From NCBI RefSeq assembly GCF_003991155.1, contig NZ_CP031293.1: DNA of 64,000 bases. One strand, 5' to 3'. Both the position numbers and the translations under genes were made by a program. Of the stretch, positions 39,062 through 42,136 are shown piece by piece. A model generated the notes under the pieces. It saw nothing but the letters and a program-made list of their open reading frames with translations. It searched no databases and had not been told where the DNA came from. Each line of letters begins with the position of its first letter. The stretch's first letter is position 1. This DNA comes from Escherichia coli (GTDB taxonomy: Bacteria; Pseudomonadota; Gammaproteobacteria; Enterobacterales; Enterobacteriaceae).

Positions 39062-39092
39062 GGCCGCCATGTGGCGGCCTGAATTATTTTTT
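39062..39092. terminator. Bidirectional hairpin terminator between convergent yjiA and brnA
   Basis: Inverted repeat GGCCGCCA/TGGCGGCC followed by a T-run (TGAATTATTTTTT). Confidence 0.6.
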
Positions 39093-39386
39093 GTTCTGAT
39101 CGCGCAGCATCGCTTCACGTAAAATTGCGTTCAGGCGAGTTTGATAGCCTTTACCTGGTCGCTTCAACCATTCCATCACATCAGAATCAATACGCACCGA
39201 GGCCTGAGTTTTCAATGGCCGATAAAACTTACCGCGTTCTGCGTTAGACCATTGCTCATCGCTGGAAGGTGGGATATCACTGTAATCAATATCTTCGTCG
39301 GATTTATTCGCCAGCGCCTTCAGTTCGGCCTCATGCTGCACATCGAGTGTAGAGGAGGTCCCTCGTTTATGTTTAACCATGCTCAT
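39084..39386 (-). CDS. brnA: BrnA-like antitoxin (COG3514 / DUF4415 family)
   Basis: About 100 aa from an internal ATG of ORF 39084..39527; motifs IDYSDIP and VRIDSDVMEWLKRPGKGYQTRLNAILREAM typical of BrnA; start overlaps the upstream toxin gene. Confidence 0.75.
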   Translation of the reverse strand: MSMVKHKRGTSSTLDVQHEAELKALANKSDEDIDYSDIPPSSDEQWSNAERGKFYRPLKTQASVRIDSDVMEWLKRPGKGYQTRLNAILREAMLRDQNKK

Positions 39387-39687
39387 AGCGATTCCTCTCT
39401 TTACGATCTGCTTTTCGTGCACTGATGATTCGAATAATTTCATTTCCGCTTTCGAAACGGATGGTATGCGCAACCAGAATAACCACGATGCCGTAAACCA
39501 GGCCGATTGTCTGCCAGCGATACTCACCGTTTTCTATGCGTTCTTGCTGTGACAAATGTTGTGGATCATCAAACACTAACACCGCATCTTCAAAGCGGAT
39601 GCCATGTTTCACCCGATTACTTTTGGCCTTGTTTGCATCCCATTCAAACTCCATTGGCATAGTTGCCATCCCTAATTGTATATACAA
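39373..39687 (-). CDS. brnT: BrnT-like toxin (COG2929 ribonuclease, RelE-like fold)
   Basis: 104-aa ORF (true start may be internal); motifs EFEWDANKAKSNRVKHGIRFEDAVLVFDDP and IRIISARKA typical of BrnT; toxin-first order with 14-nt overlap onto brnA. Confidence 0.75.
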   Translation of the reverse strand: MYIQLGMATMPMEFEWDANKAKSNRVKHGIRFEDAVLVFDDPQHLSQQERIENGEYRWQTIGLVYGIVVILVAHTIRFESGNEIIRIISARKADRKERNRYEHG

Positions 39688-39856: not shown

Positions 39857-41023
39857 GTGAAAAACTACAAAGTCATTACCCCGCTTTTTCCTACCTATGC
39901 GCAAGTTAAGGCTATGATGAAAGCCGTCTCAGGCTATTCCCTGAAAGCGGTGCGCAATATGATTACTGCCATTCACGAGCAAACCGGTACGCCGCAAAAA
40001 CCCGTTGACTGGTCAGAACCCGACCTGTGGATCAGCGAGCGCTTAACGGGTGAAGATGCCGACATCGCCCGTCGTATTTGGGATACCGATAATCACATCT
40101 TGAACCCGCGCCACAGCTACGGCTGCTACTTATTCCTCAACTATCCCCAGTTTGAGCTGATGGAAAGCACACCAGATGATATCTGGCAGCCCACCTCGCG
40201 CGGGCAAAAATTCCTGCAAGATGACGAAAAAACGCTGCGTTCACTGGACGACCAGGAAGGCATTCTGCAACTGCTTGAGCTGCTGGCTGGCCGGGAAATG
40301 TCGCGCCGCGCCGATTTATTGCCGGAATGGCAGGCCTTTTTGCATCAGCATTCGAAATTCGCGTCAGCAAGTTCAGTGAAAAGCACGCTCTACTCCCGTC
40401 TCTATAACCTTATCGACCGTGACATGGTTAACCGTGAAGGCATGAGCTATCGCATCACCGATACCGGGCGCGCCTGGCTTGGAAAAGCGTTGCCAGCACG
40501 AAAAAGCGATCCGCGTAAAGAGCTGTTGGAAGCGGTAAAACGCTATAACGAACAGCAAAAAGAGCTGCTGCGCGAACAAATCAGCACGATGAACCCGTAC
40601 AAATTTGAGCAACTGGTTGGTCAATTACTGGAAGCAATGGGCTACGAGCAGGTCGAAGTGACCAAAGCCTCAGGCGACAAAGGTGTGGACGTGATTGGTC
40701 AGGTGCAGGTCGGCATCACCACTATTACCGAAGTGGTGCAGGTCAAAAGAATGCAGAACACTATCACTCGCCCGTATATCGACCAGTTGCGCGGGGCGTT
40801 GCCTTACCACAAAGCCATTCGCGGTACGCTCATCACCACCGGGAAATTTGCGGCGAAATGTGCAGAAGCGGCGCTCTTTCCGGGTGCCGCGCCCATTACG
40901 CTTATCGACGGCGATCGTTTACTGGAACTGTTAATCGAAAATAACGTCGGCATTCGCCGCAGCAATGCAGTGGAATTGCTGGATGTGGATTTGCAGTTGT
41001 TTGATGAGCTGGAGATGGATTAA
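39857..41023 (+). CDS. Mrr-family (type IV-like) restriction endonuclease with extended N-terminal region
   Basis: 388 aa with GTG start; C-terminal Mrr catalytic-like core (NPYKFEQLVGQLLEAMGY...SGDKGVDVIG...EVVQVKR) and an Mrr-like C-terminal tail; N-terminal half about 80 aa longer than K-12 Mrr (304 aa, from memory). Confidence 0.7.
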   Translation: MKNYKVITPLFPTYAQVKAMMKAVSGYSLKAVRNMITAIHEQTGTPQKPVDWSEPDLWISERLTGEDADIARRIWDTDNHILNPRHSYGCYLFLNYPQFELMESTPDDIWQPTSRGQKFLQDDEKTLRSLDDQEGILQLLELLAGREMSRRADLLPEWQAFLHQHSKFASASSVKSTLYSRLYNLIDRDMVNREGMSYRITDTGRAWLGKALPARKSDPRKELLEAVKRYNEQQKELLREQISTMNPYKFEQLVGQLLEAMGYEQVEVTKASGDKGVDVIGQVQVGITTITEVVQVKRMQNTITRPYIDQLRGALPYHKAIRGTLITTGKFAAKCAEAALFPGAAPITLIDGDRLLELLIENNVGIRRSNAVELLDVDLQLFDELEMD

Positions 41024-41067
41024 AGGGCGAAATCTGCCGCCTCTACCATTACAATACGGAGTTCATC

Positions 41068-41244
41068 GTGGTCAAAGCACCAACTAAAAAAGCCAAAGCA
41101 AAGAAAAGCTCTGAAGAAACATTATGTGATACCACAAACCAATTTCGTGGTAGCGTTGAGTCCTCCGAATACAAGCACGTGGTGTTAAGCCTCGTGCTCC
41201 AGAAACTCATCAGCGATAAGTTTGAAGCACGCCGCAAAAAATGA
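41068..41244 (+). pseudogene. Type I R-M methyltransferase HsdM N-terminal fragment (about 58 codons, then stop)
   Basis: GTG start with GGAG RBS; translation ...LCDTTNQFRGSVESSEYKHVVLSLVLQKLISDKFEARRKK* resembles the HsdM N-terminal domain; ends at TGA within an A6 tract. Confidence 0.5.
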
Positions 41245-41903
41245 TTGCCGAAGCGTTAAAAGCTGATGGGATGGAAGAAATTTATTTTTCTGGCGACAAA
41301 AAAGCGGAATCTATCGATATTTTTGACGAAGATTATCTGGCGCGAATTAACAAGATCAAACTTCCAGCAACGAAGATCCTGTTATTACAAAAATTACTGG
41401 AAAAAGCGATCAGCGAGTTCAGGAAAGTGAACCAGTTGCAAGGGATTAACTTCACCCGCCGCTTCCAGGCGATTATAGATCGTTATAATGAGCGGCGAGA
41501 AGATGATGTACTCAACGGTGAAGAATTCGATACATTCAGTCAGGAAATGATTGATATTATCTATGATATTAAAACCGAAATGGGCACCTGGGCCGATTTA
41601 GGCATTGATATTGAAGAAAAAGCCTTTTTCGACATTCTTGCTCATATGCGCGATAAATATCAGTTCACCTATGACGATGAAAAAATGCTGTCACTGGCAA
41701 AAGAGATGAAAAGCGTTGTTGACAACACATCGAAATATCCTGACTGGAGTAAACGCGATGATATTAAAGCGAAACTGAAAGTTGAACTTATTCTGCTTCT
41801 ACACAAGCATAAGTTCCCGCCAGTAGCGAATGATGATGTTTATATGGGTGTGCTGGCACAGGCAGAGAATTTTAAAGAACATCATATGAGTGCTTTAAAT
41901 TAA
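41241..41903 (+). pseudogene. Type I restriction enzyme HsdR C-terminal fragment (DUF3387-like)
   Basis: 220-aa ORF starting at the ATGA overlap with the upstream fragment; motifs LGIDIEEKAFFDIL and ...LLLHKHKFPP... resemble the HsdR C-terminal domain as I recall it; no helicase/nuclease core present. Confidence 0.5.
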
Positions 41904-41910
41904 TTATGAA

Positions 41911-41936
41911 GGCCGGATACACTTTGTTATCCGGCC
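41911..41936 (+). terminator. Stem-loop (possible terminator) after the hsdR remnant
   Basis: 9-bp perfect inverted repeat GGCCGGATA/TATCCGGCC with 8-nt loop; no strong T-run. Confidence 0.4.
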
Positions 41937-42022
41937 ATTCTGAATTAACGTTAATTTCTCTTCCAGATCTTTCCAGTAACGCTTTTATTATTTTCTATTT
42001 TTAGCTGGACTTTCCCTGTATT

Positions 42023-42042
42023 TACTGATGATATATCCAGGT
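42023..42042. promoter_or_regulatory. LexA (SOS) box in the symE promoter: TACTGATGATATATCCAGGT
   Basis: CTG-N10-CAG with AT-rich centre, about 75 bp upstream of the symE start codon. Confidence 0.7.
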
Positions 42043-42059
42043 ATTTAGCGCGGTGCGAA

Positions 42060-42136
42060 TGTGCGCCAACACACCCGCACCGCTCATCACAATCCCTATT
42101 TCACGAGAATAGTAATCATGACTGACACGCATTCTA
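42060..42136 (-). ncRNA. symR: Probable SymR antisense sRNA (antitoxin of SymE), approximate coordinates
   Basis: Inferred from the known cis-antisense arrangement over the symE RBS and start codon; boundaries not determined from sequence. Confidence 0.35.

Follow-up and report, generated by a model that had tools for sequence, protein, structure and literature searches.

Two hsd Fragments in the Escherichia coli Immigration Control Region as the Probable Scar of a Type I hsdM-hsdS-hsdR Operon

RESULTS AND DISCUSSION

The ends of an hsd operon without its middle

How did the first codons of an hsdM gene come to lie against the last codons of an hsdR gene, and does what remains still serve any purpose? 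The question is raised by a 64,000-nucleotide stretch of E. coli DNA (the window), in which the order of genes, btsT, yjiX, yjiA, brnA/brnT, an Mrr-family endonuclease gene, two hsd fragments, SymR, symE, yjiS, yjiR, and an rpn gene, marks the neighbourhood as the E. coli immigration control region. A 2025 review (PMC12707154) treats this locus as a defence island occupied in alternation by systems of types IA, IB, and ID and also carrying brnAT, symE/symR, and rpn. An earlier note on this DNA had described a 58-codon ORF with a GTG start, a 220-aa ORF beginning at an overlapping ATG in the -1 frame, and an A6 tract, and had quoted peptides from the ORFs. All of these are present in the sequence, and the assignment of the ORFs to HsdM and HsdR is borne out by Pfam.

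The first fragment, the hsdM' remnant (ORF1; 41068..41244, plus strand), consists of hsdM codons 1-58, starting with GTG, followed by an out-of-frame TGA (41242-41244) that lies within GCAAAAAATGA. It was recognized by its match to Pfam HsdM_N (PF12161; E = 6.9e-6; score, 27.2 bits; cutoff, 24.5; profile positions 4-44 of 135), by alignment to intact hsdM, and by its annotation as a pseudogene by PGAP, and it is 86% identical to the matching intact HsdM over residues 16-58. The second fragment, the 'hsdR remnant (ORF2; 41241..41903, plus strand), corresponds to hsdR codons 868-1087, the all-helical C-terminal tail, and was recognized by the same three kinds of evidence. It starts with ATG, encodes 220 aa in the -1 frame relative to ORF1, overlaps ORF1 by the 4 nt ATGA, matches Pfam T1RH-like_C (PF11867, formerly DUF3387; E = 9.5e-54; profile positions 125-328 of 329), and is 96.8% identical to residues 868-1087 of one intact E. 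coli HsdR. Each ORF covers only part of its Pfam domain, and neither therefore represents a whole domain. An AlphaFold model of the ORF2 product is all helical (pLDDT 81.6), with residues 1-25 predicted to be disordered, and has no specific structural match among solved proteins. Similarly, when the PDB was searched by sequence with intact HsdR, the sole match was to the EcoR124I motor region (residues 142-510; E = 2e-24), leaving the tail without a solved relative.

Searches of the 64-kb window by tblastn with intact HsdM, HsdS, and HsdR recovered these two pieces and nothing else of hsd. HsdM matched over residues 16-54 alone, and the N6-adenine methyltransferase domain (N6_Mtase, PF02384) is missing, ORF1 representing only part of HsdM_N. 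HsdS, with its two target-recognition domains, had no match anywhere in the window. HsdR matched over residues 866-1087 only, and Pfam found only part of T1RH-like_C, so that the PD-(D/E)xK nuclease and the SF2 helicase motor are also missing. The absence of hsdS and of a methyltransferase or helicase core had been claimed in the earlier note and holds for the entire window. With no catalytic or DNA-binding domain left and only partial Pfam domains, the locus is unable to restrict or methylate DNA, and it is very probably a non-functional scar of a type I hsdM-hsdS-hsdR operon in the immigration control region. A feature of this kind is already known: it is an ordinary pseudogene scar, and the RefSeq annotation flags both pieces as pseudogenes that are "incomplete; partial in the middle of a contig." What we add here is its history at the level of single bases, an in-frame deletion at a microhomology followed by stepwise erosion that included the change from A7 to A6. 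Carriers of the scar have no working type I system in the immigration control region; they should transform more easily and should miss the corresponding m6A motif.

The flanks of the scar are those of an intact operon. On the left lies an intact gene for a 388-aa Mrr-family restriction endonuclease (39857..41023, plus strand; Pfam Mrr_cat, E = 1.6e-29). This mrr-like gene precedes hsdM in all intact alleles, and the same order is found at loci L001, L002, L006, and L008. The spacer between it and hsdM (41024..41067, plus strand), defined by alignments to intact loci, is 44 nt long in the window versus 63 nt in intact alleles, 19 nt having been lost after 41055. On the right lies the gene for the antitoxin sRNA SymR (42047..42123, minus strand), which scores 88.9 bits with Rfam RF01809 (gathering score, 61) and runs antisense to the beginning of symE; symE itself was identified by an NCBIfam match (E = 1.9e-66). 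SymR marks the usual hsdR-symE boundary. Just 3' of the hsdR stop codon is a hairpin (41900..41948, plus strand) with the core GGCCGGATA...TATCCGGCC and a minimum free energy of -21.8 kcal/mol (z = -5.9); none of 200 shuffled sequences folded equally well, and the hairpin is not followed by a T run. Intact loci align colinearly with this region as far as symE, and the hairpin belongs to the original 3' terminus of the hsd operon, kept whole in the scar; it probably represents either the operon terminator or an mRNA-stabilizing element. Farther to the left, between yjiA and the mrr-like gene, a BrnT/BrnA toxin-antitoxin pair is encoded on the minus strand (39084-39687), an arrangement found in every intact allele of the haplotype; in a genome of the ST80 type (L011), brnT has been cut down to a fragment.

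A deletion of about 5.44 kb within a short direct repeat

The intact loci used for comparison, those of E05, JA0257, Nissle 1917, and 19AR0656, have the order mrr-like gene, hsdM (539 aa), hsdS, hsdR (1087 aa), and symE. Intact alleles (Nissle 1917, E05, JA0257, and ST131 strains) occupy the same site as the window fragments, with yjiA, brnTA, and the mrr-like gene to the left and symE/SymR and yjiS to the right; they have the same terminator hairpin, and they are 96-98% identical to the window DNA in the hsdR tail and 90-93% identical at the 5' end of hsdM. The alignment of window positions 40900-41251 begins in the last part of the mrr-like gene, crosses the spacer, and extends 185 nt into hsdM, and positions 41239-42100 align to hsdR from nt 2600 onward and through to symE. 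The DNA missing from between these segments amounts to 5,435 bp relative to E05 (L001) and 5,462 bp relative to JA0257 (L002), and comprises hsdM codons 62-539, the whole of hsdS, and hsdR codons 1-867. Compared with the intact alleles, therefore, the window has lost about 5.44 kb specifying the methyltransferase domain, the entire specificity subunit, and the nuclease and motor domains of HsdR, and it differs further in having a frameshift, a GTG start codon, and the shortened spacer. These results agree with the earlier note, which had interpreted the locus as an internal deletion that left only the ends of an hsdM-hsdS-hsdR system and had proposed alignment to intact E. coli type I loci as a means of mapping its endpoints: the intact loci are colinear with the remnants, PGAP independently calls the pieces partial pseudogenes, and the endpoints map to 41239-41251.

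This interval (41239..41251, plus strand), which contains both junction and crossover, was defined by overlapping BLAST alignments, a three-row alignment of window, hsdM, and hsdR, and codon phases. It includes AAATGATTGC, a 10-nt exact repeat (13 of 14 nt when extended) between hsdM codons 58-61 and hsdR codons 867-870. Intact hsdM reads CGC CGC AAA AAA ATG ATT GCC GAT and intact hsdR reads CGT GAA ATG ATT GCA GAA GCG, and the parental sites are identical in all six of the intact alleles (CGCCGC-A7-TGATTGCC in hsdM and GAAATGATTGCA in hsdR). In the window, the C at 41249 is of the hsdM type, the following GA is common to both genes, and the sequence is exclusively that of hsdR from 41252. The ATG of the repeat serves as codon 59 in hsdM and as codon 868 in hsdR, in phase 0 in both cases (Met59-Ile-Ala and Met868-Ile-Ala). 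Because the repeat has the same codon phase in the two genes, the primary product of a crossover there is an in-frame, 278-codon hsdM'::'hsdR fusion, and because Met868 falls within the microhomology, the hsdR tail now reads as a 220-aa ORF. Overall, the alignments indicate that one illegitimate recombination event at a short direct repeat removed the missing DNA. What can be held against this explanation is that the direct intact parent has not been found: the sampled intact alleles are 90-93% identical to the hsdM' piece, and among 5,426 complete genomes there is no intact allele more than 95% identical to it.

Five clustered substitutions (41270, 41271, 41273, 41289, and 41290, producing V11M and L17S) lie 20 to 40 nt 3' of the junction. 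They are common to the window and to remnants of the ST80 type, and they are found in no intact allele and not in the A7 remnant described below. Error-prone repair during the deletion event could account for the cluster, as could a short tract of conversion.

Loss of one A as a second lesion

The A6 tract (41236..41241, plus strand) was characterized by alignment to intact hsdM alleles and to a second remnant, L004. Each of the six intact hsdM alleles has an A7 run, as does L004, versus A6 in the window, where the frame is shifted by -1. When one A was restored in silico, an uninterrupted ORF of 278 codons resulted, which means that the split into two ORFs is a second lesion and not the deletion join itself; the ATGA stop-start overlap, for its part, exists only because Met59/Met868 sits in the microhomology. 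The earlier note had placed the junction "across an A6 tract." The A6 tract, however, is the result of a later loss and does not represent the mechanism of the deletion, whose two ends were joined at the microhomology AAATGATTGC, which takes in the 3' end of the A run.

The A7 remnant came to light in a protein search with ORF2, which retrieved a 296-aa E. coli protein (P0003) containing both HsdM_N and T1RH-like_C, encoded at locus L004 of the draft assembly GCA_031444885.1, the only assembly in which an A7 in-frame remnant was found. L004 resembles the window in having the same junction, the same 19-nt loss from the spacer, and the changes A2V, F44L, and F47L. It differs in that its A7 run keeps hsdM' and 'hsdR in frame, in that the junction reads GCA rather than GCC, in that the start position is occupied by GAG (GTG in the window and ATG in intact alleles), and in that a +1 T insertion near the stop codon shifts the last codons. 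Downstream, L004 has an hsdS fragment and an Eco57I-like methylase gene where the window has symE. In this further rearrangement of the island (L004 7595-9435), the hsdS fragment encodes 192 aa and the N6_Mtase/Eco57I-like gene encodes 332 aa. All other junction-spanning sequences that we read or measured have A6, namely, three loci from complete genomes, three metagenome contigs, and all of the junction-spanning matches listed, each of which is 1 nt shorter than the A7 queries. No exact match to an A7 query was found in complete genomes, and no A7 form was found in metagenomes.

The order of events suggested by these comparisons is as follows. A crossover in the AAATGATTGC repeat first joined hsdM and hsdR in frame. 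In the common ancestor of all remnants, ATG would then have changed to GTG, 19 nt of the spacer would have been lost, and three amino acid changes would have arisen. Finally, in the window lineage, one A of the A7 run would have been lost, probably by replication slippage, so that the hsdM' frame came to stop at TGA and the hsdR tail became a separate ORF starting at the overlapping ATG.

Distribution of the scar and number of origins

The scar is present in 75 of 5,426 complete E. coli genomes, in at least two sub-lineages, and PGAP calls both of its pieces partial pseudogenes there; about 950 of the same genomes have close homologues of the hsdR tail, mostly within an intact gene. It is likely that all remnants descend from a single, already deleted ancestral allele. 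The alternative that the same junction arose more than once, the microhomology being a recurrent hotspot for deletion, is improbable. At the very base that tells the two parents apart, the A6 form has C, as in hsdM, and the A7 form has A, as in hsdR; this is what two separate crossovers would give, and the single-origin model consequently needs either an extra substitution or a recombination tract. Furthermore, the two forms have no derived site in common on the hsdR side, where each tail resembles at least one intact allele more closely than it resembles its counterpart in the other form. Set against this are the marks on the hsdM side that are common to all remnants and found in no intact allele (the 19-nt loss, the change of ATG to GTG, and three nonsynonymous changes), together with a chance of only about 1% that the same repeat would be used again. 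Homologous recombination with intact alleles at a later time could also have produced the pattern on the hsdR side; such recombination, if it extended up to the junction, would account for both the junction base and the lack of shared changes in hsdR. The idea that the repeat is a special hotspot is itself weakened by its ordinariness: the operon contains about 100 direct repeats that measure 9 nt or more, several of which are longer than the 10-nt repeat used, and about five 10-mers shared between hsdM and hsdR are expected by chance.

Erosion of the remnants under relaxed constraint

The probable descent from one deleted ancestor can be followed in the substitutions of the three remnant types compared, those of the window, of the ST80-type sub-lineage (L011), and of L004. 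All three types, and no intact allele, have the 19-nt spacer loss, A41058G, A2V, F44L, F47L, and an A-to-G change at base 1 of the start codon. The window and ST80 lineage has in addition acquired G14S, F15S, W20C, L26F, and L45Q, and the window alone has A23T. In hsdM', the changes on remnant lineages were nonsynonymous in 10 cases and synonymous in 1, versus 0 and 6, respectively, among intact alleles (Fisher p = 0.0006). In hsdR', private changes on the remnant branches were nonsynonymous in 10 cases and synonymous in 8, versus 3 and 16 in a deep comparison between intact alleles (p = 0.017). Likewise, dN/dS was 0 to 0.08 among intact alleles and 0.2 to 0.7 in the hsdR tail in pairs that include remnants. 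The numbers of substitutions behind these tests are small, and dN/dS for hsdR' stays below 1; nevertheless, constraint is clearly relaxed in the remnants relative to the intact alleles. Pure decay is not a perfect description, since the nonsynonymous share in hsdR' is below the naive neutral expectation (p = 0.015). This shortfall may reflect residual constraint, changes that predate the deletion in an unsampled parent, recombination with intact alleles, or small numbers.

The locus has the properties of a pseudogene: it is colinear with intact homologues but truncated, its essential domains are gone, and it has lesions beyond the truncation, namely, the A7-to-A6 frameshift, the ATG-to-GTG change, and the 19-nt spacer loss, to which the sister remnant adds a GAG start and a +1 insertion. 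It thus offers an example of the loss of a defence-island cassette and its subsequent erosion by deletion, start-codon change, spacer loss, and homopolymer frameshift.

Could the remnants still be expressed?

A crude scan of the plus strand upstream of ORF1 revealed no promoter-like site, although read-through from the mrr-like gene into the remnants is possible. Translation of ORF1 and ORF2 is also possible, judging from signals in the sequence that are compatible with it: a GGAG motif (41058-41061) lies 6 nt upstream of the GTG of ORF1, and the ATGA stop-start overlap between the two ORFs is the classic arrangement for translational coupling. The A-to-G change at 41058, common to all remnants, converts AGAG to GGAG, a better Shine-Dalgarno motif than that found in intact alleles.

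In EcoKI and EcoR124I, the C-terminal region of HsdR docks onto the methyltransferase. It is therefore conceivable, though very unlikely, that ORF2 is still made by termination-reinitiation at ATGA and acts as a stand-alone protein, for example as a decoy on type I methyltransferase cores that would lessen restriction by related systems. Beyond the GGAG motif and the ATGA overlap, such a reading could draw on the confidently predicted all-helical fold, on the dN/dS of the tail, which is below 1, and on the persistence of the scar in 75 genomes and at least two sub-lineages. Opposed to it are the incomplete Pfam match, which lacks the first 124 profile positions, and the predicted disorder of the first 25 residues, the want of a promoter-like site 5' of the remnants and of a specific structural match, and the state of the sister remnant L004, which has no start codon and has a frameshifted C terminus. 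Moreover, short proteins of other organisms with DUF3387 as their only domain vary in length from 131 to 380 aa, and all of the contexts examined are decayed or fragmented type I loci. We accordingly rejected ORF2 as a stand-alone conserved protein, the contexts of P0005, P0058, P0026, and P0050 all being decayed loci, and database entries of 130 to 380 aa named "DUF3387 domain-containing protein" should be read with caution, as most are scars of this kind and do not constitute a protein family. The more specific proposal, that the ATGA overlap or slippage of Lys-tRNA would yield an HsdR-tail decoy that retains the docking surface and damps restriction by a co-resident or incoming type ID system, is less probable still; if true, it would explain why the remnant has persisted across divergent lineages.

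The earlier note had left room for a frameshifted single gene. As history this was partly right, given that an in-frame join was later followed by the change from A7 to A6. For the locus to be read today as one gene, hsdM'::'hsdR, there would have to be -1 slippage of tRNA-Lys on AAA AAA, transcriptional slippage, or phase variation between A6 and A7, and we consider this highly improbable. Runs of Lys codons are prone to slippage, here as six A's followed by a stop codon, restoring one A produces the 278-aa ORF, and a natural in-frame A7 version exists. However, the site, C AAA AAA followed by TGA, does not fit the X XXY YYZ pattern of canonical heptamers, and we identified no stimulatory element; in the sequences read or measured, the A run does not vary in length within the lineage, and six or seven A's are few for a phase-variable tract; the sole A7 copy lacks the native start codon; and the fusion would unite two partial domains without catalytic function. 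Least credible of all is that the two ORFs reflect a homopolymer error in sequencing or assembly of a truly in-frame fusion, since, for all that the frameshift sits in a homopolymer, 57 complete genomes, produced by many laboratories on many platforms, have the identical sequence around the junction (>=99% identity), and A6 also appears in three independent metagenome contigs.

The parent family and other scars of the same operon

HsdM of the parent type is only 24% identical to that of K-12 (type IA) and 27% identical to that of CFT073 (type IB), compared with identities that are typically above 80 to 90% for HsdM and HsdR within one type I family. The HsdR proteins of K-12 (1170 aa) and CFT073 (810 aa; named "EcoAI/FtnUII family" by PGAP) have no detectable similarity to the 220-aa tail, and intact HsdR of the parent type gives only weak motor-motif matches to them. 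Type IA EcoKI (K-12) and type IB EcoAI/EcoCFTI (CFT073) occupy the same yjiA-symE interval (PMC12707154). Their loci differ from that of the parent in having the order hsdR-hsdM-hsdS on the opposite strand. A type IA or IB parent is ruled out by the HsdM identities, the gene order, and the HsdR lengths. Members of the type ID family include StySBLI, EcoR9I, and KpnAI. Only types IA, IB, and ID have been reported at this locus (PMC12707154), and since the parent is neither IA nor IB, it was probably, by exclusion, a type ID system.

Other scars of the same operon consist of hsdR 3' ends beside the downstream neighbour; their breakpoints and replacement genes differ, and none has the 41239-41251 junction. 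In KFu014 (L012 7002-7211), the last 210 nt of hsdR lie beside symE, and a gene for a 3'-5' exonuclease replaces brnTA, the mrr-like gene, and the hsd genes. This type of scar forms a second, commoner class, about 136 complete genomes covering the tail only partly. In SLDY13, the hsdR tail lies beside IS3 and a group II intron. E. coli G5 (L007 1-3415) illustrates another route to inactivation, with IS1A in hsdM and an internal stop codon in the mrr-like gene while hsdS and hsdR are intact.

Comparable remnants occur outside this setting. A Cocleimonas metagenome-assembled genome (L015 3562-4239; L016 2309-2986) contains a 225-aa HsdR-tail ORF, 76% identical to ORF2, between fic and mcrBC and without hsdM or hsdS, and the N-terminal boundary of this tail falls no more than about 8 residues from the breakpoint in E. 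coli. On a metagenome contig (SRR13612679_8132; L005 3112-3543), a 143-aa in-frame fusion of HsdM_N to an HsdR tail (P0111), with a different junction, lies directly 5' of a DarT/macrodomain (DarTG) pair; deletion fusions of the M'::'R type thus recur in unrelated defence islands. Finally, VTB96815v (L009 1883-8145 and 13868-15403) has a complete hsdM-hsdS-hsdR operon of the same family outside the immigration control region, with a tyrosine integrase gene and tRNA-Phe about 6 kb downstream, suggesting that the operon may travel on an integrative island too.
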